In this document: positions 8,948 through 43,651 of the stretch, piece by piece
Layout of the letters: each line of letters begins with the position of its first letter
How positions within the stretch are numbered: the first letter of the stretch is position 1
Assembly (NCBI GenBank): GCA_963701095.1
Contig: OY969564.1
Location: 2,240,001-2,304,000 of the forward strand
Direction of reading: 5' to 3'
Length of the DNA stretch: 64,000 nucleotides
From: an uncultured Methanoregulaceae archaeon
Lineage (GTDB): Archaea; Halobacteriota; Methanomicrobia; Methanomicrobiales; Methanospirillaceae
The notes under the pieces: generated by a model
Told to the model about the DNA's origin: nothing
The model's input: the letters and a program-made list of their open reading frames with translations, nothing else
Databases searched by the model: none
Position numbers and translations under genes: made by a program

Positions 8948-9069
8948 AGACCTCGTCAGCAGACAGAAGGACACAATAAAAACTGATTAGTTCCCGAACG
9001 GATGGAGGGTCCGGTCCACCCGTCGGTGACGCAGCTTTATTTCAATATTATCTTAGGTCTGCAGGACTG

Positions 9070-10104
9070 TTATTTTCCGGAAGGCTTCCGGTGCAGGGAC
9101 TTGTCTTCCTCGACAATATAGTTGATTACATTCTCTGAAATATCTGCAGCGTACTCTCCTGACCTGCGGATACTCTCGGCAATATAGCTGACAGAAACAG
9201 CCATCATCGTCTCCTGTTTAAAGGCAAGGTTGTGGATGTCGCCGCAGATATGTTCAAGGGCCGAAACCGATTCGATAGTCTTATGGGCCTCCTTGATATC
9301 GGCATTAAAAAACGAAATAACGCTCTTATCAAAGATTTGCATAGACATCGCACTTGCCTTCTTTAATGAAGTTATGATCTTCGGGTCGAGCTCGGTATCC
9401 ATCACCGGTTGTGCATTCTCGGCAATCCGTACGGCATGATCACCGATCCGTTCAATGATTTTGCTGATGAGGTGATAGTACATGGCCATACCGACCGACA
9501 CTTCCATCTTCCGCGAGAGGGACGGGTTCTGCATGATCATGTTGGTCTGCCGTGCTATCAGCCAGTTGAGCCGGTCTGAGTCCATATCCCGGTTAATCAC
9601 ATCAGTAGCAAGTGTCGCGTTATGCGTTTCAAGCGCCATAATGGCATCTTCATGCATGTTCCTGACAATCACAAACATCCGTTTTATGGTGTTATCAAAG
9701 GGCATCTCGGCAGGGTTGAGCAGATCTTTAATGAGGATAAGTGTATCGGTCTCTTCGATGACTTCCTGGCCGATAGTCATCTGGGTGAAGTCCCGGACAA
9801 CCGTACGGACAAATGGCGGGAACCGTTGTTTTGAGCTTATCCGGATTGTGGTAAACCCGGTAATGTATGTCCCGATAAGCATCCTGAACAGGAAGGAAGG
9901 GTCGGTAATATGACCGATATCGATCTCCTTGACCCGCTGGACCGGATCCTCAGTGGTCTTTTTGGTAACCAGAAGGGTACCATCGGGCTGGGTGATCAGT
10001 CCGACAGGATCGTTCTTCTTGATGCGCATTTCCTGGACCCAGTCTTTGGGTAGCGTAACGACAAACGATGACCCCCCGGTCATCTGTACACGGCGTATTT
10101 CCAT
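9070..10104 (-). CDS. phoU: Phosphate uptake regulator: N-terminal AbrB/SpoVT DNA-binding domain plus PhoU domains
   Basis: MEIRRVQMTGGSSFVVTLPKDW start; IERIGDHAVRIAE and IRRSGEYAADISE PhoU helices; AGGAGG RBS. Confidence 0.92.
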   Translation of the reverse strand: MEIRRVQMTGGSSFVVTLPKDWVQEMRIKKNDPVGLITQPDGTLLVTKKTTEDPVQRVKEIDIGHITDPSFLFRMLIGTYITGFTTIRISSKQRFPPFVRTVVRDFTQMTIGQEVIEETDTLILIKDLLNPAEMPFDNTIKRMFVIVRNMHEDAIMALETHNATLATDVINRDMDSDRLNWLIARQTNMIMQNPSLSRKMEVSVGMAMYYHLISKIIERIGDHAVRIAENAQPVMDTELDPKIITSLKKASAMSMQIFDKSVISFFNADIKEAHKTIESVSALEHICGDIHNLAFKQETMMAVSVSYIAESIRRSGEYAADISENVINYIVEEDKSLHRKPSGK

Positions 10105-10268
10105 TTTCTGTTTACCTCCTGATGAATAGAGCGGTATGATGAATATGCTTAACTCTATTTTCACTCTTAAAGCATATATACCTGTATAGTCTATGTCGAA
10201 AAATTGTATATCATCTCGAAGTTAATATTCGTTTGAATATCAAAAGACGATGAATATGGGGGGCAGAT

Positions 10269-12289: not shown

Positions 12290-13192
12290 ATGGCTGCGGA
12301 AACGGACAGTTTTGAGAAGTTTTTTGAGATGTATAAGCGTTTTTGCTACATTTTCGGTCGGTCTTTTGATCGGAACCCCAACCGCGATATCATCAAACTG
12401 ATCTACCAGGCCGATCTTGAAATGACCCCGGGGATGTTTACCTCGTTATGGATTGTCACGACGATGGTCGTCGGTACTTTGATGATTATTATTGCCGCAT
12501 TCATTTTCCTGCTCCCCCAGAGCCCGTTTGCAATGCCGGCTCCTTTGCCCTACATACTGCTCTTTGCTCTTATCGGTGCAGCTGCAGTTGCTATTGGTTT
12601 TCCCTTTTACCTGCAAAACCAGATCGAGAATAAAAAGCGGGATATCGATACCCAGGTCCCGTATGCCCTTGCATTCATGTCGATCCTTGCAAGTTCGGGT
12701 GCTACGCCACTCGATATTATCCGGAGGATTGCCCGGGAAGAGTACGGCCAGATCTCCAATGAGTTTCGCAAAGTGCTCTTCCGGGTGGATGTACTCGGGG
12801 AAGATGTGGTCACCGCGATGAACGGGCTTGTGCAGAATACGCCGTCCGATATATTCCGGGACATCTGCATCGATATGACCAACATTATCTACGGTGGTGG
12901 GGGCCTGAAATCCTATCTTGAGACCAAGTCAAAAGAACTCATGTCCATCCGCCGCCAGACCTACAAGGAATTTGTGGAGTCGCTCGCCGTATTCGGTGAG
13001 GGATATCTCGGGGGAGTAGTCATGACTATTACCCTGGCTGTGCTGGGCGTGGTGATTACCGGTGCTCTCGGTATCCAGATAGGGCCATTTTCCGCACAGG
13101 ATTTGTTCAATTACCTGGTTTACCTGTTGATCCCGCTCATCAATGTGATCTTCCTGCAGATGCTGGCTGTGAAATATTCGACTACCCCGTGA
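12290..13192 (+). CDS. Type IV pilus platform protein (T2SS-F/TadC/FlaJ-like)
   Basis: IDTQVPYALAFMSILASSG...YGQISNEF....DVLGED, typical of archaeal TadC. Confidence 0.92.
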   Translation: MAAETDSFEKFFEMYKRFCYIFGRSFDRNPNRDIIKLIYQADLEMTPGMFTSLWIVTTMVVGTLMIIIAAFIFLLPQSPFAMPAPLPYILLFALIGAAAVAIGFPFYLQNQIENKKRDIDTQVPYALAFMSILASSGATPLDIIRRIAREEYGQISNEFRKVLFRVDVLGEDVVTAMNGLVQNTPSDIFRDICIDMTNIIYGGGGLKSYLETKSKELMSIRRQTYKEFVESLAVFGEGYLGGVVMTITLAVLGVVITGALGIQIGPFSAQDLFNYLVYLLIPLINVIFLQMLAVKYSTTP

Positions 13193-13198
13193 TCCGTT

Positions 13199-14566
13199 AT
13201 GCCTGCGCCACCTAAGAACAAACCGGTCAATAAGAAAATGGATGAACTCCATGAGATTATCGAACGGATACGGATCAAGTACAACCCGCCGCGGGAACTG
13301 TTCACGATCGCTATTCCGGTAGCTATTGCCCTGTTGGTCGTTTTATCTGCATTTTTGATGGGATATACTCTTCACACCACGCAAAAACAAGTAACTGTCA
13401 CCACAAGTGACAAAGAAAAAGCACTGCAGGCATACCTTGCACAAATGAACAACGAGGGCGGCAATGGTACAGAAGAATCTGCTAATATAACGCCGACAAC
13501 ACCTGTAGCTCCAACAATGGGACTGGACGAGGTGATGGTATTTGCTCTCCTTATCGCTATTATCCCGTACGCGGTGGATATTACAATCCAGAAAAGGGCG
13601 GTTCGTAAAAAAGAAGAGCTCTATACCGAGTTTCTTTTCAAGCTCTCTGAGCTGATGAGAGGCGGTCTCGATCCGATAAAAGCGGTAAAGGAACTCTCTA
13701 AAACTGATCTTGGTGTTCTGACCCCGCATATCCGCATCGCATCGACATCGATGACCTATGGAAAATCCTTTGAAGAGGCCATGAAGGCGATGTCGAAATC
13801 GCTTCACTCCGAGTTGATTACCAGGTATACCATGCTCGTTGTTCAGGCTTCATATTCAGGGGGGTCAGTTGCTGATCTTATTCTCAAGGCCTCAGAAGAT
13901 ATGCGGAGCATTATCTCAATAGAAAGGGAAAAAGAAGGTAACCTTCACCAGTATGTGATGATCTTCTACTTTGCTCAGGCGATTATCATATTTATCGTCT
14001 ATATCCTAACGACAAGCCTGCTCCCGTTCGTAGCACAGATAGGTGCCACCCAGATGTTTGGTAAATCAGATATTGGTGATATCGATTTTGCCCGGGGATT
14101 CTTTCATATGATCATTCTCAACTCCATATTCGGTGGTCTGATTATTGGTAAGATCAGCGAAGGGGAGGCACGGTACGGTCTCAAGCATGTCGTGGTGCTC
14201 GTCGCCGTGGGGTATATTGCATGTGCTCTGTTTATACTTCCTCCGCCGGTTGCACCGGTCGGACCAAAAATCAATATTACTGTCGTATCCGGGGATCAAC
14301 AGACTGGAGTTATTGCATTACCGCTTTCAAACCCCATTGTTTTCCAGCTTACAGATGCAACTGGTAATCCTGTGAATAGTACATCGGTTTCATTCAGCAT
14401 AGTACCGAGTGGGTCAGTGAATCCGGTGTCGGCTACCTCAGATGATAAAGGACAAGTAGAGACGAAAGTCATTTTCGGATCCGATTCGGGATCTTATATT
14501 ATTACTGCAACGGCAAATGGAGTTTCCACTAAAGCAACCGCAATAGCAAAAACAGGAGGAAGTTAG
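13199..14566 (+). CDS. Second T2SS-F/TadC platform protein with C-terminal Big_1/invasin-type Ig-like domain
   Basis: EFLFKLSELMRGG...GLIIGKISEG...GLKH; tail VSGDQQTG...LTDATGNPV...V.F...SATSDDKG...ITAT. Confidence 0.9.
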   Translation: MPAPPKNKPVNKKMDELHEIIERIRIKYNPPRELFTIAIPVAIALLVVLSAFLMGYTLHTTQKQVTVTTSDKEKALQAYLAQMNNEGGNGTEESANITPTTPVAPTMGLDEVMVFALLIAIIPYAVDITIQKRAVRKKEELYTEFLFKLSELMRGGLDPIKAVKELSKTDLGVLTPHIRIASTSMTYGKSFEEAMKAMSKSLHSELITRYTMLVVQASYSGGSVADLILKASEDMRSIISIEREKEGNLHQYVMIFYFAQAIIIFIVYILTTSLLPFVAQIGATQMFGKSDIGDIDFARGFFHMIILNSIFGGLIIGKISEGEARYGLKHVVVLVAVGYIACALFILPPPVAPVGPKINITVVSGDQQTGVIALPLSNPIVFQLTDATGNPVNSTSVSFSIVPSGSVNPVSATSDDKGQVETKVIFGSDSGSYIITATANGVSTKATAIAKTGGS

Positions 14567-19136: not shown

Positions 19137-19751
19137 CTATCCGTGTCGCTCTCTGGTATCGATTAGGAATCCTTCATCGCTCACTGTGAAAGGTAGCATC
19201 TTTTCAGAAAGCTTGGCTCCCTGCATTTTGGGGATATTGAGAAAACGTTTGAGTTTATCCCCTTCAATTACGGTGGTCACCTGAATAATCCCGTCTGCCA
19301 TAGCCCGCAAAAGTGCCTCATGCCGTTCGGGGAGAACACCGCGATCTACAAGCAGGAGGAGAACATGGCCGGTTTTTGCTGCGGTGAGGAGCCGGGAAAT
19401 AGCGTCCCGGAATTCGGAAAGAGGCGTATCAAGGAAATAGAGTGAAAACTGATCTACGATCACCAGGTTGCAGTTCCCAGGGAGTGTAAGAATATCAAGG
19501 AGCGGTCCGGGAGCGGTTCCGTGCATTTCTTCAATATGGAATCCCTTCACCGGCAAAATTCTCAGGAGTTTCATGTCATCGCGGATCTCGTCTGATGCTC
19601 TTGTGGTGATATAACACACGTCTTTTCCGTCAGCTGCCGCCTCTGAGGCTATATATTGGGCATAGATTGATTTGGCGAGCCCCAAATCTTCTTCAATCAG
19701 GATCACGCTCTTTTTCGGAAAATTATCTAAGCCATGAACGAGTGTCATCAA
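19137..19751 (-). CDS. Single-domain KaiC/RAD55-like RecA-superfamily protein with degenerate Walker A
   Basis: VCYITT, LVIVD.FS, MADGIIQ, RFLNIPKM, PFTVSDEGF.IDT. Confidence 0.8.
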   Translation of the reverse strand: MMTLVHGLDNFPKKSVILIEEDLGLAKSIYAQYIASEAAADGKDVCYITTRASDEIRDDMKLLRILPVKGFHIEEMHGTAPGPLLDILTLPGNCNLVIVDQFSLYFLDTPLSEFRDAISRLLTAAKTGHVLLLLVDRGVLPERHEALLRAMADGIIQVTTVIEGDKLKRFLNIPKMQGAKLSEKMLPFTVSDEGFLIDTRERHG

Positions 19752-28699: not shown

Positions 28700-29434
28700 T
28701 CATGCTGTAATTACATCGATTGATCTTTCGGTGTTCTTATTCCGTGCTGCTGCTTGCTCGATCCGGGCATAATTCCTCAGGATCCTGGTTAATGTATCGT
28801 GTAACTCTTGGTTCTTGGTGAGAAAGATAAACATAACGGTATTGTCGGCTATGATAAGGGGAGAAGATCCTGTCAGTCTCAAAACCTCGTCGAACTTCTT
28901 TTTCGGTTCATCCGGTGCAGGGGGTTTCCTTCTCTGATAGTGCTGGTATATCATGAGGATGGATTCGTTATCGAGGTGTTCATAAAATGTTTTTAGTTCT
29001 GAGAATGCGAGATGTTTTTCTGTGACATTCTTTTCCTTGATCCCCGTATCCGGATCAATAAATATCAATGATTCAATGGGAAAATTCTCGTAGATGCTCT
29101 GGAAATACTCATCGCGTTTCTGTTTTGAGAAGATCTCGTTTTTCTCGATGCGTATCCGGACTTTTTTTTTGTTGATATCATCTTTGAGTTCCTTTATGTA
29201 ACTTTTCAATTCATCATAATAGTGATCGACTTCTTCTGTTCTCCTGAGACGCCGGAAACAGGCTATCAGATCAGTATTTCGGCAACCGGGATTTCCTTTG
29301 AAATCTGGATCGTATTTTGTCAGCATGGGGACGATAACGATACGATCGATTCCACCCTTGAATCCCTTGATGATTGAAGTAATAAGATCATACTTGAACA
29401 GATCTTTAGTATCACCAAAATATTTCGCATTCAT
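28700..29434 (-). CDS. Uncharacterised protein (possible SAM-dependent methyltransferase-like fold)
   Basis: N-terminal YFGD..D..KY, LIFIDPDTG, KH...EL, IYQH motifs. Confidence 0.65.
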   Translation of the reverse strand: MNAKYFGDTKDLFKYDLITSIIKGFKGGIDRIVIVPMLTKYDPDFKGNPGCRNTDLIACFRRLRRTEEVDHYYDELKSYIKELKDDINKKKVRIRIEKNEIFSKQKRDEYFQSIYENFPIESLIFIDPDTGIKEKNVTEKHLAFSELKTFYEHLDNESILMIYQHYQRRKPPAPDEPKKKFDEVLRLTGSSPLIIADNTVMFIFLTKNQELHDTLTRILRNYARIEQAAARNKNTERSIDVITA

Positions 29435-29539
29435 TGTTCAATCCCTGTTGAGAATAGCAAGCGAGACAGTAAAAAAGTATGTTTTCAGGGATTTTTTGTT
29501 GATTTGAATACCCTGATTAGGTAATGTTAAAGAGATCTA

Positions 29540-29695
29540 ATCTATATTGAATTACCTCCTATCCCGTCTGAATTAAAAATATATATAGCCTATTGTGATC
29601 ACTATATTGAAAAGCCTTAAATCTATATCAAAAACGCTAAAAATATATAGTCAAAGGTCGATATGGTGATTGGTGAATTGACATCTGTGGGGGAT
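29540..29695 (+). promoter_or_regulatory. pstS upstream region with phased (C/A)TATAT repeats and a TCTGTGGGGGAT box
   Basis: CTATAT at 29542, 29602 and 29623; ATATAT at 29581 and 29643; 12-mer at 29684-29695. Confidence 0.5.
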
Positions 29696-29789
29696 GAATG
29701 AACTTCACCAGCAAGAACTCCGTGGCAAATCCCTTAATACTACAAATTTTTCTACAAATCCCATCCACGAACACCAAAGGTGAAAAGTA

Positions 29790-30994
29790 ATGTACGCAAT
29801 GAAACGCATGAACAATGATATGGCAGTCTCACCGATTGTCGCGACGCTCGTCCTTATCGTCGTCGCCGTCATCGGTGCTGTTGCAGTCGGAACCATTATG
29901 GGTTCCTTCTCAACCCAGGTATCGAAGCAGGCAAACGCAGGGCAGGCATCGTCCGCATCCCAGACCGAGATTCTCGTTGCTGGTTCGACAACCCTCCAGC
30001 CCGTTGAAATCAACCTTGCATCAGACTATGCAAAGATCAACCCCGGTATCCAGGTTAACGTCCAGGGTGGATCATCAGGTGTCGGTGTAACCGCTGTTGC
30101 AACCGGTATCGCTGATATCGGTGCATCTTCAGCCGCATCCAAGATCACCGCAGGACAGGCAGCAAACCCGTCCAACCCCGGCTACCAGAACCTTTACGCA
30201 CAACTCATCGGCGGCCGTGCAGTTGCATGGATCACCAATGCCGCATCCCCGGCTGTCGCATCAGGCACAGTTAGCGCATCTGATCTCCAGCAGGCATACA
30301 GCACTGCCCTTGGATCAAACGGTACCCTTCCAGCTCATGGGCAAACAGCAGCAGCATTTCAGGAAATGCCATTATGGTTTCCCGTGCAGACTCATCTGGA
30401 ACTGAAGACGATGCAAGCACCTGGCTCTTTGGTGCAACCGGCAAGATCAACTCCTCATACACTATTGCAGAGACTGGCAACGAAGGTCTTCGTTATTATA
30501 TCGCTACGACGGCACACACACTCGGTTTCTGCGACGCAGGCTGGGCACTCACCAACCCGTCCGGTATCGAGATCCTCAACGTCACTGACTGGACCGCAGC
30601 AACAAGCCCAGACTCACTCTACACTCCAGAAGTAGCAACTGGCACAGTAGGAGAAACCTACGGTGCAGTCACCAAGACTGAAATGATGGATGCTCTTAAG
30701 GACTGGTATTTCGGCAGCGCACAGGACCACTCAGGCAGTGCAGTTGCAACCTCTGGCGTACACACTGGCCAGCAGATCGGTAACTACCCCCAGGGACTTG
30801 TCGGCGGTATGTACTGGATCACCCCAGCTACCGTCCCAACCGTCTTTACCGCCCGTGGAACCATCCAGACCCAGGGAAGCAGCGCAGCATCAAGCACAGT
30901 CAAGGACCTCATGAACTTCGCAGTGTCACCCGTAGAACAGCCAGCATTTGACAACGTCGGTGACTTACAGATTAACGAGTTCGCCTCGACATAA
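29790..30994 (+). CDS. pstS: PstS-type phosphate-binding protein fused to an archaeal type IV pilin (class III) N-terminus; -1 frameshift near 30330
   Basis: NDMA|VSPIVATLVLIVVAVIGAVAVG; then AGSTTLQP, VQGGSSGVG, ADIGASS and, in the second frame, SRADSSGTE; directly upstream of pstC. Confidence 0.88.
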
Positions 30995-31003
30995 GACCAT
31001 ATA

Positions 31004-31019
31004 ATTTTTTTCTTTTTTT
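31004..31019 (+). terminator. Oligo-T tract after pstS (archaeal-type terminator/attenuator)
   Basis: ATTTTTTTCTTTTTTT about 10 bp after the stop codon. Confidence 0.5.
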
Positions 31020-31038
31020 GACTGAGTGTAATTAAATA

Positions 31039-31956
31039 ATGAAAAGCAAATCAGAGATTCATAAAAATCTCTTCCTCTTCTGTGCCTTAGCCACTGTGGT
31101 CACAGTTTTTTCCGTCATTTTGTTTATTCTGATAAATGCAGCACCAGTATTTCTCCAGTACGGCTTTGGGTTCATCTTCGGAACCACATGGGACTACCCC
31201 ACTCACCAGTATGGTGCCTGGCCACTCATAACAGGGACATTATTACTGACTGCAGTGACGATGGTGATCTCGGTTCCTGTGGGCATTGCAACTGCGGTTT
31301 TCCTCTCTGAATGGGCGCCGCCGTGGCTCGACCGGTCCCTCTCCACGCTTATCGAACTTTTGGTAGGGATACCTTCGGTCGTTTTTGGTATACTCGGTTT
31401 TTTTGTATTCCGGGATTTTTTCCGGTATGGTATCAATCCGTTCATCGCAAACAATCTTGGTTTCATTTCATTCTTTCAAGCAGGTTCTACAGATGGTTTC
31501 GGTATCCCGATAGCATCGTTTGTCCTTAGCCTGATGATCCTTCCCACAATTATTGCTCTTTCGACAGAGGCGATGAGGAGTGTCCCGGCAGAGCAGCGTG
31601 AAGCATCAGCTGCTCTTGGCGCGACTGACTGGGAAACCATACGGGATCTCATCCTTCCCTCGGCAGTCCCCGGAATAACGACCGGCGTGATTTTGGGAAC
31701 GATGCGAGCAATGGGTGAGACTATGGCTGTGGTCATGCTCGCCGGAGGTGCGTATGGAGTTCCAACGTCCGTTCTTGATTCTGTCCTGCCACTGACTGCA
31801 AAAATCCTCATCGATCTTGAGAATTATATCGCCGAACCGGAACCAAGGAGCGCTCTTTTCGCTCTTGGCGTCCTACTTATGGCAGTGGAAATCGGTTTTG
31901 TTTTAGCTATTCATATCATTACCGACAAAATGAAGCGGCGGTATGGCGGTGCCTGA
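31039..31956 (+). CDS. pstC: Phosphate ABC transporter permease PstC
   Basis: YG.WPLI.GT, IELL.GIPSVVFG, MILPTI, EAS.ALGAT, RAMGETMAV. Confidence 0.95.
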   Translation: MKSKSEIHKNLFLFCALATVVTVFSVILFILINAAPVFLQYGFGFIFGTTWDYPTHQYGAWPLITGTLLLTAVTMVISVPVGIATAVFLSEWAPPWLDRSLSTLIELLVGIPSVVFGILGFFVFRDFFRYGINPFIANNLGFISFFQAGSTDGFGIPIASFVLSLMILPTIIALSTEAMRSVPAEQREASAALGATDWETIRDLILPSAVPGITTGVILGTMRAMGETMAVVMLAGGAYGVPTSVLDSVLPLTAKILIDLENYIAEPEPRSALFALGVLLMAVEIGFVLAIHIITDKMKRRYGGA

Positions 31957-33071
31957 TGAAACGGCGTTATGTCAAAGGTCAGATCATCAAGATAATCTGC
32001 GGCACTATTGCGTTTCTTCTTGCGGGGATGCTCATCCTCATCGTTGCAATATGTCTTATCAAAGGATTCCCCTCCCTTAACCCGAAATTTTTTCTCGTTA
32101 CCGAAAACGTGGCCGGGGGTTACAAGGGAATAGGGACGGGCATTGCCAATGCTATTGAGGGTACGTTCCTTCTCGCTCTCACATCTACCTTACTCGCTCT
32201 TCCATTCGGTGTGGGCACAGCAATTTATCTCCAGAGATATGCGCCAGATAACCGGTATACCAGGTCACTCCGGTTCATTATAGAAGTCCTTGCTGGTACG
32301 CCATCAATAGTCCTTGGTATTTTTGGCGTGATTGTCCTTGTTATTTACCTAAAACCTATAACCGGGGGAGAATCGTTATTTGCAGGTGCTATTGCTCTTT
32401 CTATACTTGTACTTCCGGTTATAATCCGGGCCACAGAAGATGCAATTATCCGGGTGCCATCAGAGCTTGAGGAAGCCAGCTATGCCCTTGGTGCTACGAA
32501 ATGGCTGACTCTGAAAAATATCACTATTCCCGTTGCCCTTTCCGGTATTGTTGTCGGTGCTATTCTCTCGTTTGGCAGGGCTGCTGAGGAATCGGCTATA
32601 GTAATTCTGACCGCAGGATATTCACAGTATGCCCCGGAATTTAAGGTTGTTGCTAACCCGACGTTTTTACTCGGTATAAAAATATATCCCCTTAACAATC
32701 TTGTTGGAACTATCCCGACACTGATCTATACAGGGTATGAAAATTCTGGTGTTTACCCTGAATCTTTCGTCTTTGCCGCGGCCTGCGCTCTCATTATGCT
32801 CGTTTTGATCATCAACCTCTCGGCAAAGATCATTCTCGCATTTGCAACGGCAAATATGAAGGGAAATCAGGATACCCTTTTATCTTCCCTTTTTGAACCT
32901 TTATCAGACCCCTTCCACAGGAAAAAACCAAAAAAAATACCTTCATGTAGCGACGTGGAGACTGTATCCGTGGCATCAAAAGAATTATTTTCCAAACCGG
33001 AGGAGATCCTCACTTCCGAACCGCCGAATGAGTCAGCCCGGGAAATGCAAAGCTTACCCAGGTACTGCTGA
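31956..33071 (+). CDS. pstA: Phosphate ABC transporter permease PstA, possibly fused to the next ORF
   Basis: AIEGT, LAGTPSIV.G.FG, EEASYALGATKW, GRAAEESA; TGATG coupling to pstC. Confidence 0.93.
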   Translation: MKRRYVKGQIIKIICGTIAFLLAGMLILIVAICLIKGFPSLNPKFFLVTENVAGGYKGIGTGIANAIEGTFLLALTSTLLALPFGVGTAIYLQRYAPDNRYTRSLRFIIEVLAGTPSIVLGIFGVIVLVIYLKPITGGESLFAGAIALSILVLPVIIRATEDAIIRVPSELEEASYALGATKWLTLKNITIPVALSGIVVGAILSFGRAAEESAIVILTAGYSQYAPEFKVVANPTFLLGIKIYPLNNLVGTIPTLIYTGYENSGVYPESFVFAAACALIMLVLIINLSAKIILAFATANMKGNQDTLLSSLFEPLSDPFHRKKPKKIPSCSDVETVSVASKELFSKPEEILTSEPPNESAREMQSLPRYC

Positions 33072-34611
33072 ACTATCTGTCGATTCCACGCTCAGTAATG
33101 CTGAAAATCTCTCCGTTGCCCCTAGCAAGAAAAAATTTTCTGTTGGTGCCGGGATTAAACGGGGTTTTAATACTATTAGCCAAAAAACCCGTATTTTTGT
33201 CCATGACACCGGGAAAAAGGAAACTACTGCAAAAATGGCCACGGTTCCTGGCAGCTCAGATTACCTCGGTCCCATTCGTAAAGTGAAGATCTCCCATATT
33301 AGGAATATTATAGTCTCATTCAGATCGTTCCTCGTTACTCTCGCCCCGTTTGCATTGGTTACTGTAATTCTCGTAGCTCTAACCGCTATGCTACCTGTTC
33401 TGTCACCAGTAGGATCTAATGGGCCGGCTGGTTCCCTGACTGTTCCCCTCATGACTCTAATCATATGCGTGATCGGAACGGTATGTGCTCTCTTCCTTGT
33501 GCGTAATAGTACTCTCTTTTTATTGCGGCGCCAAAAGGGACGAATGGGGAACCGGCGTGCTGAGTTCGCCGCGATCGCAATCGGATTTTGTTTTGTCCTT
33601 TTCGGTGCATTCATGTTTTCCGTTCATATTTTCTCACCCGTCCCGTCAATTCAGTCTCCGGGTTCAGGAGCATCAACGGGTACAGGCATATTCAGTTACT
33701 TCACTCCTTCAGGAAATGGCGGACTTTCTGAAATCAGTGGATTAGTTTTTAATAACAGCCTGTTTAGCTTCGTTTATAAGCCTGGAAATGGGACAACCCC
33801 CCAGGCCACGGACACATCCAACAGGGCCGCACAGATGGCAGCACTACTGGCTTCTGAAGAGACACCCGTAGCGACAACTACAACTCCCCAAAGCACACCG
33901 GCAGCACTCCAACCCTCACCAGTGCTGTCCTCCTCTACAGCGGTGTCATCACCAGGATCGGTCGTTCCGGTAAAAAACGCGCTTGATATAGGAGAATCCT
34001 ATTGGTATGGCGATAACAGCCGGCCGTGCTTGGCGACGATTTACAATGCAACAACTATGCCACTCTATTTCTATTGGGATATAGACTGGAACCGGTTTGT
34101 CCAAGTAACTCCGGCATCGAGCGGGGACACATTCCTGGTTATCTTCATCCGCATCGAAGACACAGGAAATATGAGTGCCATTGTCCCGCCTGGAGCTCAG
34201 TATGTTGTTTATTATAAAGGTCAGGCATATTACAACGAACCGTATTTCGATACTTCTGTCCTCGATGCGAACGAAATTAGTATTTATACGGCTAATTTCA
34301 ATCTCCTTCCCTACCAGTGGATCCGCGAGATCGGGCAGCAAAGGCGAGATTATGCCTTCCTGACCGGGTATAACATCTTTGGTCAGAACCAGACTCTTGA
34401 ATCAAATTATTCGGCCAATACCCAGTTCGCCCCCCCAAGTGCCACCACTCCCAACGGGGAAGGTTGGTTTATCAAGCCCGGACGGAGCAATGCCATAGAT
34501 GGGTACCTGATCTATGAAGTCCCGGGAGCTGTTGCAACGGATCTCAAAGATACCTACGTTCAGGTGCCTTTCAATAGTTTCAGCTCAACTCAATGGCGCC
34601 TCGGAAAATAA
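33058..34611 (+). CDS. Three-TM protein with Ser/Thr/Pro linker and extracellular DUF4352-like Ig domain; probable C-terminal extension of PstA (alternative start 33235)
   Basis: Open frame overlapping the pstA end; GDTFLVIFIRIEDTG and IKPG...DGYLIYEVP are typical of DUF4352-like domains. Confidence 0.7.
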   Translation, partial: PGTAELSVDSTLSNAENLSVAPSKKKFSVGAGIKRGFNTISQKTRIFVHDTGKKETTAKMATVPGSSDYLGPIRKVKISHIRNIIVSFRSFLVTLAPFALVTVILVALTAMLPVLSPVGSNGPAGSLTVPLMTLIICVIGTVCALFLVRNSTLFLLRRQKGRMGNRRAEFAAIAIGFCFVLFGAFMFSVHIFSPVPSIQSPGSGASTGTGIFSYFTPSGNGGLSEISGLVFNNSLFSFVYKPGNGTTPQATDTSNRAAQMAALLASEETPVATTTTPQSTPAALQPSPVLSSSTAVSSPGSVVPVKNALDIGESYWYGDNSRPCLATIYNATTMPLYFYWDIDWNRFVQVTPASSGDTFLVIFIRIEDTGNMSAIVPPGAQYVVYYKGQAYYNEPYFDTSVLDANEISIYTANFNLLPYQWIREIGQQRRDYAFLTGYNIFGQNQTLESNYSANTQFAPPSATTPNGEGWFIKPGRSNAIDGYLIYEVPGAVATDLKDTYVQVPFNSFSSTQWRLGK

Positions 34612-34878: not shown

Positions 34879-36951
34879 ATGAAAATAAACATTTTAGGCA
34901 ATAGGAAAAAGATCTTAGGTGACAGGAAACAGCTCCGTATTCCCCGCATCAGGAAACAGCTCCATATTCCTCTTGTCATAGGTGTAATCATTATCCTGCT
35001 GGGGCTTGGGATGTATTTCCACTTCCTGCCGAGTATTGGCAGTTTTACACATATGTTTGAACCTGAAGTTACTGCGGCTCCAGTCCAGTCACTGGCAGAC
35101 GCAGGTGCGCCGCTCAGTATCCCTCTTACAAAGCCACTCATCGCTGATTTCCTGGCTTCACCTGGAAATCAATCAGACCCCCTCTCCGTACAGTTTTTTG
35201 ATATGAGCCGGGGTGATCCGGATACTTGGAAATGGGACTTTGGTGACAACACGACTTCAACCGTTCAGAACCCGGTTCACGATTATGCCCAACAGGGTAT
35301 CTATAATGTTACCCTGACGGATACACGTGGAGATGGAGCCAGCAGCACTATCACCGCTTACGACGTTATGGACACCCGGGAAAACACCGAAAATTCCGTG
35401 CTTTTCGATACTATCCGTGATGGCGTCATCAAAAAAGGCTCGTTTTTATCCTTCGTAACTGCCGACAGCAGCTCATCTGTCTCCGTGAATGGCAAACAGA
35501 TCCAGCTGCCGGTGGGATCCCTTGTAAAAATCCGGGCTGACTTTGACACCACCGGCACCATAACCCTTCGCGGCAGCAATATTCTTGGTTGCAGTATTGC
35601 TGATGGCACTCTTTTTGTGAACGGTGCACAGGCTGCTATCGGTAGTTTTTCGAATTGTGTCATACCATCAGTCCGAAACTATCATGCAAACATTACTTTT
35701 GCGATCAAACCGACACTGGGGGAGGTCAGACAGATCCTGATCAACGGTAACAAAATCCTTGCCGGGCAGGAAAACTCCTATATGGTCGTTTCTGAGGACT
35801 CCCAAAATCCCGGAAATGATCTAAGTCTTATAACCCTCCCCGGGTACTACGAGGGAAGCGCTTCCCGGTATTCGATCTCACCGGCGCTGATCGCTGGTTT
35901 TGTAGCAACATCAGCAAGTGAAGGAAGCACTCCACTTAATGTCTCATTTATGGATCAATCGGCCGGTTCACCAAACTCATGGTTATGGACATTCGGTGAC
36001 GGGACCAGTTCCGATGAACAGAATCCCACACATCTCTATTCCTACCCGGGGACGTATGATGTGACCCTCACGGTGAAAAATGGGGAACAGACCGATACTG
36101 TTGGACTTGATAACGCGGTGATCGTCACTCCGCCTCGGGTTGTGGCCAACTTTTCGGCACAGCCGCTCACGGGCACAGTGCCTCTTACCGTAAAATTTGC
36201 CGACCAGTCCACCGGGTCCCCGACATCATGGGACTGGACCTTCCAGGAGATCTCGTGGAATCAGACATTCTATACTTCCAGCACCACCGTTTACGCCACA
36301 TCAACTGCCCAGAATCCCCAGATAACCTTCACCGATCCCGGCACGTATGACGTCTGGCTTACGGTTGGCAATGTCTATGGCAGCAGTGATATGCTTAAAC
36401 CCCAGTATATCGTAGCCACCCCGTGGCCATACAGTATTCCCAATAATGATATAATATTCAAAACGGGGAAACCCGGCTATCTTGAAGAGGCTTCAAGCGC
36501 ACAATTTGTCGTGAGTAACACACCTGCTTCAATTACGATCAACGGGACATATCACGATCTTCCAAAAGGTGCAACCGTGCGGTTCGTGGCAGACAGCGAC
36601 CAGCAGGGTGACATAAGCGTTGTCCGCAACAGCATCATAAAATTTGCATTCCCGGACATGGCGGTTTATGTGAACGGCGATCTTCTCGATCAGGGCACTA
36701 TTGGCGACATCTATATTCCCTCCATGAATCAGTTCCAGACGAACCTCACGTATTATTTCTCGCCAAATTCGTCCCAGACTTATGAGACAATTAACGGGCA
36801 AAAGTACCTTTCCGATCTCGACAATGCATGGATCCGTATCTATAACCTTGGTCCGGATGAACAGGGGTCGCTTTCGCTCATATCAGCGGCAAATACAACT
36901 TCTATAGAGGGTGCCGAGAACCAGACGGTTCAGGACTGGATTCTCCAGTGA
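34879..36951 (+). CDS. Membrane-anchored PKD-domain surface protein (three PKD domains and two copies of an unassigned beta domain)
   Basis: WKWDFGD...QNPVHDY, WLWTFGDG...QNPTHLY, WDWTF...QNP; N-terminal TM. Confidence 0.9.
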   Translation: MKINILGNRKKILGDRKQLRIPRIRKQLHIPLVIGVIIILLGLGMYFHFLPSIGSFTHMFEPEVTAAPVQSLADAGAPLSIPLTKPLIADFLASPGNQSDPLSVQFFDMSRGDPDTWKWDFGDNTTSTVQNPVHDYAQQGIYNVTLTDTRGDGASSTITAYDVMDTRENTENSVLFDTIRDGVIKKGSFLSFVTADSSSSVSVNGKQIQLPVGSLVKIRADFDTTGTITLRGSNILGCSIADGTLFVNGAQAAIGSFSNCVIPSVRNYHANITFAIKPTLGEVRQILINGNKILAGQENSYMVVSEDSQNPGNDLSLITLPGYYEGSASRYSISPALIAGFVATSASEGSTPLNVSFMDQSAGSPNSWLWTFGDGTSSDEQNPTHLYSYPGTYDVTLTVKNGEQTDTVGLDNAVIVTPPRVVANFSAQPLTGTVPLTVKFADQSTGSPTSWDWTFQEISWNQTFYTSSTTVYATSTAQNPQITFTDPGTYDVWLTVGNVYGSSDMLKPQYIVATPWPYSIPNNDIIFKTGKPGYLEEASSAQFVVSNTPASITINGTYHDLPKGATVRFVADSDQQGDISVVRNSIIKFAFPDMAVYVNGDLLDQGTIGDIYIPSMNQFQTNLTYYFSPNSSQTYETINGQKYLSDLDNAWIRIYNLGPDEQGSLSLISAANTTSIEGAENQTVQDWILQ
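34924..34970 (+). repeat. Short in-frame tandem duplication (27-bp period) in the PKD gene N-terminus
   Basis: AGGAAACAGCTCCGTATTCC / AGGAAACAGCTCCATATTCC encoding RKQLRIP / RKQLHIP. Confidence 0.7.
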
Positions 36952-38771: not shown

Positions 38772-40076
38772 ATGTATAAATTGGGATTTGTTGCATGCCT
38801 CTTCGTCGTCGTTCTTGTCGGGGCATGCGGATGCTCTGTTGCATCTCCCGGAACTGGTCCAGTACCGGGGACAATGCCAACGTTACCTGCTACCTATATT
38901 GCCGGTGAAAATACACCTGCCGCGGAAACTTTCGTGATTACACCAACCCCGACGCCGCCAACTGCAGCGGTAAATATTTCTGGAGCTCAAACTAATGTGA
39001 CGCCTACCCAAGTCACCATTAACTGCAACGGTCAGTCATGTTCAGGTTTCGTTAATGTCACGCCGGGTAATCCTGATGCCCCGGTAAGCTCTTTTTCGGC
39101 GAATCCACAGTTTACGTATGTGCCGCCAAATTCCCCCAATCCGAATGTTTCAGTCCAGTTTACTGATACTTCGACAAATTCTCCGACATCGTGGGCCTGG
39201 TCATTCGGTGACACAAATCATAGCACCAGCTCGGTGGAGAACCCGACTTTTACCTATTATGGATACAATTATTATCAGGTCAGCCTCGGTGTGAGTAACC
39301 TTCTTGGACAGTCTTCGAGCACCGCTACTATCGCTGTTTGTCCTCTTGAAGCATCCTTTACGATGAACCAGACTACTGGTCCCGTGCCACTTACCGTCCA
39401 GTTCACCGATACTTCAAACAACCAACCCACGTCATGGTTATGGAACTTCGGGGACGGATCAACCAGCACCCAACAAAACCCCCTTCACCGGTACATCACA
39501 TCAGGAGTTTACACGGTCAGGCTGGATGCAACGGATGCTCTTGGCTCCTGCTGGAACACCAACCAGATCACCGTCTCGCCTTTGGTTGCATCGTTTATCG
39601 CTAACCAGACCAGTGGACTTGAACCTCTCACTGTCCAGTTTACCGATAAATCGACAGACCAGCCAATTTCGTGGCGATGGAACTTTGGTGACGGTGGAAC
39701 ATCCACTCTCCAGAATCCGGTCCACGTATACGCGACAGCAGGTTCGTATCTCGTAAATCTCAATGCCACGAACGGCTATGATGGATGGATGAGCGCTCCG
39801 CAATCGACGATCACCGTTTATTCCCTCCCTGCTGTATCCTTCACGGCAATCCCGACAACCGGGGCCGCCGGAACTTCCGTAGTATTTAATGACCAGAGCA
39901 CTGGCTCCCCCGCTCCCACATCTTGGTACTGGGACTTTGGCGATGGGTACAACAGCACATACCAAAACCCATCACACCAGTATGCCAGTGCCGGATTGTA
40001 TACTATCAGCCATTCGGCAACAAATGTGCAGGGAACGGAGTGGCTGAATAAAACGGCGTATATCTCTATATCATGA
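38772..40076 (+). CDS. Secreted/lipoprotein PKD-repeat protein (four PKD domains)
   Basis: Four VQFTD.S...PTSW.W.FGDG..S..QNP units; signal with GACGC; ATGA overlap with the next gene. Confidence 0.92.
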   Translation: MYKLGFVACLFVVVLVGACGCSVASPGTGPVPGTMPTLPATYIAGENTPAAETFVITPTPTPPTAAVNISGAQTNVTPTQVTINCNGQSCSGFVNVTPGNPDAPVSSFSANPQFTYVPPNSPNPNVSVQFTDTSTNSPTSWAWSFGDTNHSTSSVENPTFTYYGYNYYQVSLGVSNLLGQSSSTATIAVCPLEASFTMNQTTGPVPLTVQFTDTSNNQPTSWLWNFGDGSTSTQQNPLHRYITSGVYTVRLDATDALGSCWNTNQITVSPLVASFIANQTSGLEPLTVQFTDKSTDQPISWRWNFGDGGTSTLQNPVHVYATAGSYLVNLNATNGYDGWMSAPQSTITVYSLPAVSFTAIPTTGAAGTSVVFNDQSTGSPAPTSWYWDFGDGYNSTYQNPSHQYASAGLYTISHSATNVQGTEWLNKTAYISIS

Positions 40077-42257
40077 CACCCATACCACTTGCCAGCAGGA
40101 TCTCATCATTTTTTATTCACAAAGAGCCTGACGGAACTGAAACCGAGGTCTCTCTGGAAACACAGGACTCACCGTCAGAACAACCCGAAGAAAATTTTGT
40201 TCATAATGAGGCTAAGCCGGAACAGGACGTAATTCCTCAGATTCCTGAGAACCCGCGTCCGGTTTCACGTATCCAGAAGTTCATTTTGTACTTTGTTGAG
40301 CCGGAACTGGAACCGGACACAAAAACAACCGCTGTTGTCCCGGCACCAGCCAAAGAACCCCCCCAAAAACGTCCTGCCCTCCCTATAAAAGACCGGATTC
40401 ATGTACAACTGGCATCGTTAAGATCGTTTGGCCTGAAAATAGTATTGATTTTCGTCGAGCCCGGGTCCATTGAAACGGAGGCGGCTCCCCATCAGGATCT
40501 TCCTGCACTTTCTGAACCCGAATCTCCACAAGCGATCATTGAAGCTCCACCAGTCCAACCGGAACCCGTTCCAACCCTAACCGAAGAAAGCCAGGTCAGC
40601 TCCAGTCAAGGCCAAACCCTCTTTTATGGAGACGATCCGGTCATTACTCGTGTCGCCGGAAGCAAAGGAGATACAGACCCTTGATTTCGATCCGGGTGTT
40701 CTTGACGACCCATCCCTTGAGGGTTCGCTCCGGGATGTCAATATCACCTACAGGATCGATCCTCCGTACCAGTATGTGCATATCGAGTACAACAAACAAG
40801 AGGGGACCCTCATTTATTCCGTCGTAGAGCCGCAGCTCTCTGAAGATGAAAAAGTCGCCCTTGATATTATCGAGCAGGCATTCGAGAAACTGGTGAGTAC
40901 AAATCTCGAGATTATTGAGGGTGACCGGCGGACTGAATATCTCCGGGAACGGTTTTATTCCCTAGTCAATATATTCGGCCTCAAACTGACGGAACACCAG
41001 AAAGAGCGGATGTTCTTTGTGCTCAAACGACAGTATCTCGGGTACAGCCGGATCGACACCCTGATGAAAGACAAATATATCGAAGATATCAGCTGCAACG
41101 GGTCGGATATCTTCCTCTATGTCCAGCACCGTATCTATGGTTCCATCCGGACCAACGTGAAATTCGGAGAAGTTGAGCTCAACAATTTTGTCCTGAAACT
41201 TGCTCAGGTCGGCGGCAGGCATATCTCCCTCCTCCAGCCCATCCGTGACGTCTCGCTCCCAGACGGGAGCAGAGGAAACCTTACGCTCGGTGGTGAAGTA
41301 ACACGGAAAGGATCGACGTTTACCATCCGTAAATTCCGTGCAAACCCTATCTCACCCATCGAAATGATGGACTACCACTCGGTCGATGCGATGGAACTTG
41401 CGTATTTGTGGATCCTGATGGAATACAAGCGATCGATTCTTGTTTCCGGGGGAACTGCAACCGGTAAAACCACATTTTTAAACGTCCTGTGCAGTTTCAT
41501 TCCGCCTGAGTACAAGATTGTCTCTATCGAAGACACCGCTGAGCTTAACCTGATGCACCCCAACTGGATCCAGTCCATTACCCGGGCCGGGTTTGGCAGT
41601 TCCAGTGGCGGAGAGTCTGTGTCCGGGGTAAGCGGCGTCTCTTCTAAAACCCCGGGTGACATCTCGCTTTATGACCTGCTTGTTGCAGCTCTTCGTCAGC
41701 GTCCTGAGTTCATCATCGTTGGTGAAGTCCGGGGCAGCGAAGCGTTCACCCTGTTTCAGGCAATTGCTGTCGGGCACGCGGCCCTAGGGACCATCCACGC
41801 CGGGTCCATGGATGAACTCCTCGCCCGTGTGGAGTCAAACCCCATGAACGTTCCCCGGAGCCTTTTCTCCAACCTCGATGTCGTGCTCTTTCCCATGCAT
41901 ATCAAGAAAGGGGAACGGAGTATGCGGCGCCTGGCCAATATCGTCGAGATGCTGGAGTCTGACCGGGATTCAGGGGACCTTATCACGAACACCGTCTTCA
42001 AATGGCAACCTGATATCGATGAGTTTCAGTACCAGGGCCGCAGTTTCCTCTTTGACAAGATCAAAGATACCCATGGTGTAAGTAAAGAGTTACTCAACCA
42101 GGAACTCAAGGACCGGACAGCATTCCTGCTTAACCTGCAGAAGTCAGGTATACGGGAATACAACGCGGTAACCGAGCAGATCCGGGCATATTACCGGGAT
42201 AAACCCGCGGTGATGAAAGAGATTATTGCGGTCCAGACAGATGCAATTGAAGCGTAA
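40073..42257 (+). CDS. Type II/IV secretion (archaeal pilus assembly) ATPase with Pro/Glu-rich N-terminal extension; frameshift near 40578, or independent start at 40626
   Basis: IEDISCNG, FTIRKF, Walker A GGTATGKTT, SIEDTAEL, LRQRPEFIIVGEVRG, TIHA; the downstream frame is open back to 40581 (PKKARSAPVKAKPSF). Confidence 0.93.
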
Positions 42258-42424: not shown

Positions 42425-43651
42425 TCAACAGGGAAACGCTGGATCTTTGACCTGTACGGGTATTGCTGGGAATGTTCCATAGATGACGTTTATCGTTCCA
42501 TTTCCCGATGTCACATTAGTCCATACATTTCCATATTGATCGGTTACATTGGAGTAAGGATTAAACACGAAATTACTGTTGTAGGGATTTGAACCAAGAA
42601 CAAAATTTACGGTCTGAGCGGGGGGATATAACGGAGGATTCCCGTCAATATCCTTTAACTTCACAAAGACTCCCGTCACAGACCCGGAACCGTTAAGATA
42701 ACAGAATGTTTGCACAACCGGGTTAACTATGGGGACATAATTCTGATCAGCGGGAATAACCTCTGATTCTGAAACCCCGGTCATCCCGACATTATCGGTT
42801 ACCTCAAGGTTGACGAGGAATGGACCTGCATCCATCGGCGTAAAATGTGTGGTTTTTCCATGGGTGACATTCGCAATCATATCAGATGTGTCCGTCCAGT
42901 TACCCGGTGCCGGTTTTGTGTTTGCACCGCTGTAAATAGTCCAATTCCAATTGGAAATTGTGTTATCTGATGTAGATCCCGAACCGTCAAGTACCAAAAC
43001 ATCCCGCTGAAAAGGACCTAAGTTTTCATTATCTATGGAAGTTCGGAAATCGGCGATAGGGGGCTTATATGTTTGTTGAAAGAAGTTATTGAGTGAAGTC
43101 ATAACAATGATCTTGACCTGAGCATTTGTGGGGATGAACGTGTTACTGTTGAGGAACGAGGGATCGGTAAAATTGACCTGAATTTCCTTGCTCTGGCCTC
43201 CGGGAATGCCTATGGTACCCAAAGCGGACTGGTTAAGATTTTGTTCGTATTCGTATGGCAGGCCATTTGTCGTCCCGTTGAATACAGTAATATTATTGAC
43301 ATATTGTATGTTGTCTGATCCCGTACCTGATATGGCAATAGCGACAATGCCTACACCGTCTGTATTCAGGTTCACCAGGTGAAGGGTCATTGAACTCCAG
43401 TTTTCCGAATTAGTAATATTATATGGAGCAGGGGTCTGGTTCCAGGCATTAGGATCATTTTGGAAGTTTACCGTTGAGAACTGAACATTCTCAGCTTTTA
43501 CTTCTGCAATATGCTCCTGCTGGTTCGCCGCAGTTTTCTGCATCTGGGAGATCATGAGACCGAGAGCAGCCGCAGCAGTGACCGTTATCAGGATGAGCAG
43601 AAGCGTTCCTATAATAACAGAAACGCCCTTATCGTTTAACGGCCGGGTCAT
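42425..43651 (-). CDS. Large (minor) type IV pilin with class III signal and PKD-like domain
   Basis: NDKG|VSVIIGTLLLILITVTAAAAL; PPIADF...VLDGSGSTSD...WNWT...LEVTDN.G. Confidence 0.88.
   Translation of the reverse strand: MTRPLNDKGVSVIIGTLLLILITVTAAAALGLMISQMQKTAANQQEHIAEVKAENVQFSTVNFQNDPNAWNQTPAPYNITNSENWSSMTLHLVNLNTDGVGIVAIAISGTGSDNIQYVNNITVFNGTTNGLPYEYEQNLNQSALGTIGIPGGQSKEIQVNFTDPSFLNSNTFIPTNAQVKIIVMTSLNNFFQQTYKPPIADFRTSIDNENLGPFQRDVLVLDGSGSTSDNTISNWNWTIYSGANTKPAPGNWTDTSDMIANVTHGKTTHFTPMDAGPFLVNLEVTDNVGMTGVSESEVIPADQNYVPIVNPVVQTFCYLNGSGSVTGVFVKLKDIDGNPPLYPPAQTVNFVLGSNPYNSNFVFNPYSNVTDQYGNVWTNVTSGNGTINVIYGTFPAIPVQVKDPAFPC

Follow-up and report, generated by a model that had tools for sequence, protein, structure and literature searches.

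A second, pilin-like PstS encoded inside a pilus gene cluster of an uncultured Methanoregulaceae archaeon suggests a phosphate-scavenging surface structure like the Sulfolobus sugar bindosome

The gene discussed here encodes a PstS-family binding protein and lies in a stretch of 64,000 nucleotides from an uncultured Methanoregulaceae archaeon (G000:C1:2240001-2304000, contig OY969564.1), the whole of which is called the window and whose own numbering is used for all coordinates not prefixed with a genome. Genome G000 is a single contig of 2.63 Mb with a completeness of 86%, and the gene, referred to below as the cluster pstS (its product as the cluster PstS), is the second pstS in it. It begins much as an archaeal type IV pilin does, is followed by permease genes of the phosphate transporter, and stands inside a cluster of pilus genes, an arrangement which suggests, by analogy with the bindosome that carries sugar-binding proteins in Sulfolobus, a surface structure that scavenges phosphate. 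The operon and its parts, all on the forward strand, are as follows.

29640..29789 (+): conserved 5' leader with a TATA-like element, AAAATATATAG, and, some 10 nt ahead of the start codon (ATG at 29790), a Shine-Dalgarno-like GGTGA
29790..30994 (+): cluster pstS, encoding a PstS-family binding protein of 401 aa once a missing base after 30331 is restored
29790..29825 (+): n-region of the class III-type signal, MYAMKRMNNDMA, with predicted cleavage after Ala12 and an A↓VSP junction shared with seven PilA-like pilins of the genome
29826..29912 (+): hydrophobic H-domain, VSPIVATLVLIVVAVIGAVAVGTIMGSFS, near-invariant among 55 homologues and including the modelled helix 15-37
30995..31038 (+): intergenic T7-C-T7 tract (run at 31005-31019), a candidate archaeal oligo-T terminator or attenuator
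31039..31956 (+): cluster pstC (NCBIfam TIGR02138, 273.3 bits against a cut-off of 196.45)
31956..34611 (+): cluster pstA with an extension of about 570 aa (TIGR00974, 232.4 bits against 193.45), interrupted in the window sequence by an additional G at 33061

That the cluster pstS encodes a PstS-family binding protein is supported by profile, fold and residue comparisons. The first of the two open reading frames (ORFs) into which the gene is broken in the window (29790-30635) opens with MYAMKRMNNDMAVSPIVATLVLIVVAVIGAVAVGTIMGSFS and passes through a Ser/Ala/Gln-rich stretch to GSTT, GGSSG and DIGASS, and the second (30374-30994), in another frame, carries SRADSSGT; the four motifs by which a first, sequence-only reading of this DNA had recognized a PstS (GSTT, GGSSG, DIGASS and RxxxSGT) are thus all present, the last of them in the second frame. 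The scan with PBP_like models which that reading had proposed likewise came out in its favor, Pfam PBP_like_2 scoring 43.3 bits on the first ORF against a gathering cut-off of 27 and being matched by 55 of 55 aligned homologues. A profile of these 55 homologues matches 31 phosphate-binding proteins of the PDB, the best being 1twy (expectation value, E, 4.9e-25), with phosphate-bound 4gd5 at E 1.2e-23, and the GST, GxGS, DIG and R-x3-SGT motifs of the family profile are aligned with both chains. An AlphaFold2 model of the intact orthologue P0001, a 399-aa database protein that is 95% identical to the first ORF over its residues 1-182 and 92% identical to the second over 185-399, reaches a mean predicted local distance difference test score (pLDDT) of 85 and a predicted template modelling score of 0.80; it consists of a helix (residues 15-37), a two-lobe domain that starts at residue 59 and, between them, a linker of low confidence (about 38-58, pLDDT 46-63). 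Among the Foldseek matches listed against the PDB, PstS, DING and other phosphate binders extend to about rank 44 (best E 1.1e-16), and molybdate binders (ModA) appear only from rank 45. Across the 55-sequence alignment, G65 and D109-I110-G111 never vary, and conservation is 90% or more at A64, S66, T67, S96, R196 and S200-G201-T202; these conserved motif residues presumably correspond to the phosphate contacts of E. coli PstS. The ligand is predicted to be of the phosphate type, that is, a tetrahedral oxyanion.

Two observations concern the variability of the binding domain itself. One homologue, P0032, is without the R-x3-SGT motif, and two paralogues resembling the cluster pstS on one Methanocellaceae contig (L026 and L028) keep the pilin-type helix and have lost the GSTT loop (LIADTPLMY, TIGGDYDMQ). 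Because these paralogues have the helix and not the loop, one and the same N-terminal module may be joined to binding domains that have other ligands or none.

The N-terminus of the protein, MYAMKRMNNDMA↓VSPIVATLVLIVVAVIGAVAVG, combines a short charged n-region, an Ala at position -1 and a hydrophobic stretch of some 20 residues or more that starts directly at +1. Seven PilA-like proteins of genome G000 have the junction A/G↓VSPVVGVMLMLVV, several others have A↓VSE or G↓VSV, and a six-frame search of the whole genome for the pattern [AG][VIL]S[PE][VIL][IVL][GA] with a hydrophobic run behind it gives 13 instances, namely 11 other pilin-like N-termini, the cluster PstS and one false match. The resemblance is not a chance one. 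An hhalign comparison of the family N-terminus with the genome's own pilins gives a probability of 96.2% and an E of 2.5e-9, in register at A↓VSP, values that hydrophobic bias has possibly inflated, and the N-terminus of the family profile also matches 8fk7, a 144-residue PDB chain deposited as 'Flagellin', at E 6.6e-4. The sequence-only reading was therefore right to see a class III-type N-terminus, and equally right that a lipobox is missing: the first 60 residues contain no Cys, whereas the other PstS of the genome (L002) has a lipobox-type signal, …LVAGC↓TSN. A single Peptidase_A24 gene is found in the genome (31.2 bits against 26.5; a 397-aa ORF), and its product would, judging from the junction, cleave the cluster PstS after Ala12.

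The hydrophobic helix behind this junction is conserved far more strictly than the rest of the protein. Of the 29 positions from V13 to S41, 25 do not vary at all among the 55 homologues and four are conserved to 90% or more, in a set whose overall identity to P0001 is 36-69%; V13, S14 and P15 are among the invariant residues, and A12 is at least 90% conserved. Over the 31 codons from A12, each pair of five Methanoregula loci shows 4-14 synonymous against 0-4 non-synonymous differences, so that synonymous sites vary while the protein hardly does, and the identity of the helix is kept by selection. Gene conversion was considered as the cause of the identical helices and is ruled out by the same 4-14 synonymously differing codons of 31. 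Nearly the same helix, with VATLVLIVVA throughout, is found in Methanoculleus, Methanolinea, Methanocellaceae and a metagenome-assembled genome (MAG) of the Nitrososphaerales. It is present in 120 of 120 database homologues among the matches listed, in a search that is biased by seeding on shared words; in the less biased six-frame search of 274 genomes, all matches of at least 53% identity begin at query residue 18 or before, apart from one, which is the second part of a split gene in G236.

Both permeases encoded behind the cluster pstS, PstC and PstA, pass their NCBIfam equivalog cut-offs, and in the four Methanoregula genomes L016-L019 one uninterrupted ORF of 805-948 aa spans the pstA region. 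The pstA extension adds extra transmembrane helices, a Ser/Thr-rich linker and a C-terminal domain of about 230 aa, which has no Pfam match, and the extension as a whole has no match in L021, L022, L025, L026, L028, L029 and L031 (Methanoculleus, Methanolinea and Methanocellaceae). The sequence-only reading had named pstC and the permeases, and both pstC and pstA are confirmed; what it missed is the pstA extension and the absence of pstB. The only PstB of the genome that scores over its cut-off is encoded at G000 2188919-2189659, beside the canonical PstS. In that same region (G000:C1:2188919-2196851), about 75 kb from the cluster, the lipobox-type pstS, pstB and the sole prepilin peptidase gene lie within about 6 kb.

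Around the operon, the window holds the following further genes of the cluster.

9073..10164 (-): protein with a PhoU domain (80.3 bits) and a MazE/AbrB-type DNA-binding domain (MazE_antitoxin, 40.1 bits), from its context a candidate phosphate-responsive regulator at the cluster edge
12290..13189 (+): TadC/T2SSF platform protein a (Pfam T2SSF, 57.7 bits)
13199..14563 (+): TadC/T2SSF platform protein b with an Ig-like C-terminal end (T2SSF, 54.7 bits; Big_1, 29.6 bits, below cut-off; also by synteny)
19140..19751 (-): KaiC/FlaH-like ATPase (Pfam KaiC, 43 bits), with orthologues in 10 related loci
34879..36951 (+): PKD-repeat membrane-anchored protein (PKD_4, 131.9 bits), syntenic in Methanoregula, with orthologues of 46-66% identity in L016-L019
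37156..37938 (-): IS1595-family transposase (DDE_Tnp_IS1595, 116.7 bits), between the PKD gene and lipoprotein genes
40073..42257 (+): FlaI/T2SSE-type filament ATPase (T2SSE, 110 bits; PilB3_C, 27.8 bits) in two ORFs, 40073-40681 and 40626-42257
42425..43651 (-): cluster pilin of 408 aa, with the class III signal MTRPLNDKG↓VSVIIGTLLLILITV and a PKD-like region

Read along the window, the candidate regulator of PhoU-AbrB type is followed by a low-molecular-weight phosphatase, the two T2SSF/TadC proteins, a small secreted protein and two-component genes, then by the KaiC/FlaH-like ATPase, DUF5658 proteins and others, and the pstS-pstC-extended pstA operon (29790-34611), and finally by the PKD protein, the IS1595 transposase, two lipoprotein-like proteins, the FlaI/T2SSE ATPase and the cluster pilin. 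Orthologues of platform protein a, at 36-90% identity, adjoin the pstS gene in L018, L019, L020-L022 and L026-L031, and in the M. boonei locus the gene at the position of the KaiC/FlaH-like ATPase is entered as FlaH, arCOG04148, in Table S4 of PMC4858521. The two ATPase ORFs of the window overlap and encode 203 aa and 543 aa, and the open frames of relatives measure 590-979 aa, so that the split is probably a third indel, near 40570-40680. The cluster pilin scores 22.3 bits with Pilin_N, below the cut-off, and 20.7 bits with K319L-like_PKD; orthologues occur in L021, L025, L026, L028 and L030, and an alignment of four of them shows a conserved pilin whose H-domain differs from that of the cluster PstS. 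A complex prediction for residues 10-130 of this pilin with residues 13-70 of the cluster PstS scored 0.01 against a mark of 0.32 and, having been run without controls, counts as evidence neither way. The IS1595 transposase belongs to this genome only among those compared, no ORF being present at that position in L016-L019. A PhoU_div (DUF47) protein just under its cut-off is encoded at 26037-26798 (+), next to a PEP-utilising-enzyme-like gene (26811-28412), and it and the PhoU-domain protein at 9073-10164, which flank the cluster, may both be phosphate-responsive regulators.

The same neighborhood recurs in other genomes. Four genomes of the genus have the same cluster order without the transposase, and their ATPase orthologue, 77-91% identical, is found about 10 kb downstream of the pstS gene. 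In a census of 274 genomes of the class that are at least 85% complete (ATPase at E<=1e-140, cluster pstS at E<=1e-14), the ATPase orthologue occurs in 30 genomes, the cluster pstS likewise in 30, and both in 26; the two are on the same contig in 24 of these 26, and in 23 of the 24 the pstS gene lies 2.6-10.3 kb upstream of the ATPase gene on the same strand. In the two genomes with the pair on different contigs (G062 and G063), the assemblies comprise 170 and 190 contigs. A search for related loci by helix patterns, which yields a sample and not a census, matched at least 600 stretches and confirmed at least 12 loci, one of them duplicating G032; of the 11 others among the matches listed, which belong to other genera, 10 have the ATPase orthologue, 52-73% identical, within the stretch. 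In Methanoculleus the array is compact (tadC-tadC-kaiC(-)-…-pstS-pstC-pstA-ATPase-pilin(-)), Methanolinea has pstS-pstC-pstA-ATPase-pilin-pstB, and the Nitrososphaerales MAG has a pstS-like gene…ATPase-tadC-tadC-kaiC. Two Methanocellaceae stretches (L026 and L028) hold the pstS gene beside ATPase-tadC-tadC-pilin and no pstC or pstA match in the stretch, and a third holds the pstS gene, pstC and pstA fragments, the ATPase gene and two tadC genes. L030, the eleventh locus, ends inside the pstS gene and contains tadC, kaiC and pilin genes, and not the ATPase. It is this synteny and co-occurrence that would tie the cluster pstS to the filament machinery, and the cluster context, which the sequence-only reading had not seen, is the strongest argument for its pilin-like interpretation, now partly supported.

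The control regions of the operon are conserved as well. The leader of the cluster pstS is nearly identical in the window and in L017 (genome G020, 8945-9097), and an Rfam scan of 29400-31100 at E<=1 returned only two chance-level matches far below gathering scores, so that the leader belongs to no known RNA family. Within the leader are an imperfect inverted repeat (GGTGAA…TTCACC) and a short ORF upstream of the gene, MNFTSKNSVAN…, which some gene callers fuse to the protein (e.g. P0061 and P0113). Archaeal RNA polymerase terminates at oligo-T, and a long T-tract between pstS and pstC had already been pointed out from the sequence; it is the T7-C-T7 at 31005-31019, and a run of T6-T9 follows the pstS stop codon in 10 of the 10 loci that could be judged, a count that leaves out L020 (truncated pstS) and L031 (pstC 3.5 kb away). 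Partial termination at this run would yield the cluster PstS in excess of the permeases.

To the reading in which the cluster PstS is a phosphate-binding protein exported by the pilin route, as part of a bindosome-like phosphate system, we assign a probability of roughly 0.6. The pre-protein would insert with its n-region in the cytoplasm and be cut after Ala12 by the sole A24 peptidase, leaving a mature protein made up of an N-terminal hydrophobic helix, a disordered linker of about 20 residues and the PstS fold. The TadC platform and FlaI ATPase of the same cluster would recognize the mature helix, the neighboring machinery consisting of the FlaI-type ATPase, two TadC proteins, the KaiC/FlaH-like ATPase and the PKD pilin, and, as synteny and selection on the helix suggest, the protein would be brought up into an assembly at the cell surface, perhaps along with the PKD pilin. 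The PstS domain on its flexible linker would then capture phosphate and dock on PstC and PstA, and these permeases, given the absence of pstB from their own operon, would borrow the genome's only PstB from the canonical pst operon to energize transport. A more specific version, in which a type IV filament machine has the cluster PstS as its main cargo, cut like a pilin and either polymerized or mounted on a PKD-pilin fiber, so as to form a phosphate-capturing appendage that reaches through or beyond the surface layer and hands phosphate to the permeases of the same operon, is put forward tentatively.

A number of observations weigh against this reading. The curated pilin models stay below their thresholds for the window protein: Pfam Pilin_N (PF07790), a scan proposed in the sequence-only reading, gives 19.2 bits against a gathering score of 25.2 and reaches E<=0.01 in only 5 of 55 homologues (best E 0.0018), and TIGR02537, with a cut-off of 20, gives 19.2 for the window and 17.9 for P0001 and does not match the homologue P0067 at E<=0.01, although another homologue, P0072, passes it (24.0) and so speaks for the reading. 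Classical class III signals have Lys or Arg at position -2, where the family has Met, Leu or His; the genome's own pilins are also without Lys or Arg there, carry Asp, Glu, Asn, His, Gln or Ser at -2/-3 with basic residues further upstream, and thereby show that the unusual Met at -2 of the cluster PstS fits a local pattern. The low-confidence linker (pLDDT 46-63) by which the helix is joined to the binding domain is a further point, since in a classical pilin the head is packed on the helix, and an architecture without such packing fits a tether as well as a filament subunit. On the side of the transporter, the NCBIfam PstS models score below their cut-offs for the window (TIGR02136, 44.9 against 206.6; TIGR00975, 27.2 against 205) and likewise for the intact orthologue P0001 (45.1 and 35.8), distances that make the cluster PstS a divergent branch of the PstS family, and the operon is without pstB and also without phoU. 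The census, too, has its exceptions: pstS and ATPase are 33.5 kb apart in G206, the ATPase occurs without the cluster pstS in four genomes (G057, G065, G159 and G160), and a pstS-like match occurs without the ATPase in four others (58% identity in G274; 33-36% in G073, G162 and G171). Because genomes of relatives are not independent samples and genes that are linked co-occur as a matter of course, these counts are descriptive and do not amount to a test.

The main rival is that the helix is a permanent membrane anchor, cleaved or not, which tethers the cluster PstS beside PstC and PstA; its conservation would then come from packing with the transporter, for example with the extra transmembrane helices of PstA, and the filament genes would build an unrelated adhesive PKD pilus. 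A model with a single helix followed by a flexible linker and no head packed on the helix agrees with such a tether, as do the sub-threshold pilin scores, the extra transmembrane segments of PstA in Methanoregula and the fact that the cluster has a pilin of its own with a different H-domain. The helix is, however, almost the same in loci without the PstA extension, those of Methanoculleus, Methanolinea and Methanocellaceae, and a plain anchor needs no A↓VSP junction, which is nevertheless conserved as in true pilins. Moreover, L026 and L028 have ATPase and TadC genes next to their pstS gene, in stretches where neither pstC nor pstA is matched, and in all but one of the 24 same-contig genomes the gene is close upstream of the ATPase on the same strand; with this evidence on both sides, we consider a permanent anchor rather unlikely.

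Less probable still is what the sequence-only reading had proposed, namely that the cluster PstS is a true polymerizing subunit whose helices form a filament core decorated with phosphate-binding domains. The helix is near-invariant as in major pilins, the conserved T-run could allow excess expression, and dedicated machinery is encoded alongside, but a head of 340 aa on a floppy linker does not resemble the known major pilins, a separate conserved pilin is present in the cluster, and no filament of such a kind is known, the Sulfolobus bindosome filament not having been visualized either according to the text of PMC13705601.

The remaining question is whether the gene is intact. Homology to P0001 places the frame break at 30335-30350, and the indels were checked in Logan contigs (not raw reads) of four public runs, X1, X2, X3 and X12, over 29700-34700; all four runs with the cluster pstS or a close relative are labelled as soil, bog or wetland metagenomes. 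Of the sampled words, a fraction of 0.91 is found in X1, whose contigs over 29925-30953 differ from the window by no other letter than one extra A behind 30331 (CCAGC to CCAAGC), which yields a single frame of 401 codons, in agreement with the protein of about 400 aa that the sequence-only reading had obtained by restoring one base near 30330. Being possibly the source sample of the window assembly, X1 is best regarded as a second assembly and not as an independent strain; X2 and X3 come from studies other than that of X1. The contigs of X2, X3 and X12 represent a close relative of the gene, each with at least 55 other letters and 11 gaps across it and with a net 8-base deletion within 30334-30350 that leaves it in frame. 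At 33061, X1, X2 and X3 all have one base fewer, which joins the pstA ORFs 31956-33071 and 32893-34611. From the RNA library X12, one 1178-nt contig of the relative (55 other letters, 11 gaps) covers 29813-30995, and 31036-33206 is uncovered; as X12 is one study, available as contigs only and with DNA possibly in the library, it was not used for expression, transcript ends or the pstS:pstC ratio. Other genes of genome G000 are also split, which together with the 86% completeness of a single contig fits indel errors in the assembly, and the frameshift in the cluster pstS is an assembly artefact. That the cluster pstS, and possibly the whole operon, is a pseudogene inactivated by frameshifts, as the two frames shown by the window for each of pstS and pstA and the truncation of P0014 at another site might suggest, is hardly credible in the face of the base restored in X1, the base dropped at 33061 in three runs, and the in-frame relative in X2, X3 and the X12 RNA library.

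Two further details of these indels may be recorded. Those at 30331 and 33061 are both in CCAG contexts (TTCCAGCTC and ACCCAGGTA), and one may speculate that they reflect a systematic base-calling error at a modified motif. P0014, a 158-aa database protein from a 599-kb contig, represents a 97%-identical copy of the gene with a frameshift at a different site, after GASS; this is either a further error of assembly or a genuine lesion carried by a sister strain.

The idea of binding proteins carried by pilus-like machinery, the bindosome, rests on the sugar-binding proteins of Sulfolobus. A survey of 2026 (PMC13705601, PLoS Genet) reports 4397 putative class III-signal binding proteins across archaea, methanogen lineages included, and proposes in its text that such proteins functionalize type IV filament (T4F) machineries, the link to a specific T4F locus being still to be shown; none of its many class III-signal binding proteins is tied to a specific filament locus in that text. 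The words phosphate, PstS, permease, Methanoregula, Methanoculleus and KaiC do not occur in the searchable text of that paper, nor PBP_like_2, PF12849, Methanoregula or phosphate in its readable supplements, the Pfam list of its S9 Fig being an image that may include PBP_like_2. The gene order itself has been in print for longer, in Table S4 of Makarova et al. 2016 (PMC4858521): Methanosarcina acetivorans has PstS (FlaFind 'yes')-PstC-PstA-FlaI-TadC-TadC-RAD55, Methanoplanus petrolearius has FlaH…PstS-PstC-PstA-FlaI-arCOG09549, and Methanolobus psychrophilus has PstS-PstC-PstA-FlaI-TadC, with pstA and the ATPase gene overlapping by 8 nt in M. acetivorans and by 11 nt in M. petrolearius. Table S2 of the same work places the ATPases of the M. 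boonei, M. acetivorans, M. petrolearius and M. psychrophilus loci in clade 2, and the tadC part and ATPase part of the M. boonei locus are entered as two loci, so that the pst genes fall in the gap between them; phosphate, PstS and transport do not occur in its main text. Our literature search found no paper with both 'bindosome' and 'PstS', nothing relevant on Methanoregula and phosphate, and no discussion of a phosphate operon inside a filament locus. The raw data have thus been public since 2016 and the general idea since 2026, and the system is a variant of the bindosome and of the class III-signal binding proteins.

If the more specific version with a filament machine holds, this would be the first bindosome in which cargo, transporter and machinery form one genetic unit, an appendage system conserved in the Methanomicrobiales, Methanocellales, Methanosarcinales and at least one Nitrososphaerales MAG. 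That the pstS gene, the permeases and the ATPase are neighbors across several methanogen orders offers a one-to-one assignment of cargo to machine, and as M. acetivorans has the same arrangement in Table S4 of PMC4858521 and is genetically tractable, the hypothesis is directly testable there. The matter also bears on phosphorus acquisition by peat and wetland methanogens.

Of the known systems, the Sulfolobus bindosome is alike in that, according to the text of PMC13705601, a binding protein of an ATP-binding cassette transporter has a prepilin-type signal and a conserved hydrophobic N-terminus and is proposed to be brought to the surface by a type IV filament ATPase with its platform. It differs in its cargo, which is sugar in Sulfolobus and would be of the phosphate type in the Methanomicrobia and relatives considered here; in its ATPase, BasEF being of subclade 4I, whereas the ATPases of the corresponding published loci are of clade 2 (PMC4858521, Table S2); in its gene order, the binding protein and permeases standing with the transporter and away from bas as described in PMC13705601, and inside the filament locus here; and in the operon, which is here without pstB. 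The class III-signal substrate-binding proteins surveyed in 2026 are of the same general class, and the searchable text of that survey (PMC13705601) names no T4F locus with a transporter. With the canonical PstSCAB-PhoU system, the locus shares the PstS fold, the binding-site motifs and permeases over their equivalog cut-offs; it is set apart by a PstS far below its own equivalog cut-offs with a class III-type signal in place of a lipobox, by an operon without pstB or phoU and, in Methanoregula, by the PstA extension. The euryarchaeal clade 2 type IV pili, with PilA-family pilins and PilB/PilC-type machinery, resemble it in their two tadC genes, in a FlaH or RAD55/KaiC-type gene present in three of the four loci published in PMC4858521, in the arCOG09549 secreted component that two of these loci are listed with, and in the PilB3_C C-terminal domain which the window ATPase also has; what sets these published loci apart is that they carry pstS-pstC-pstA directly upstream of the ATPase gene.

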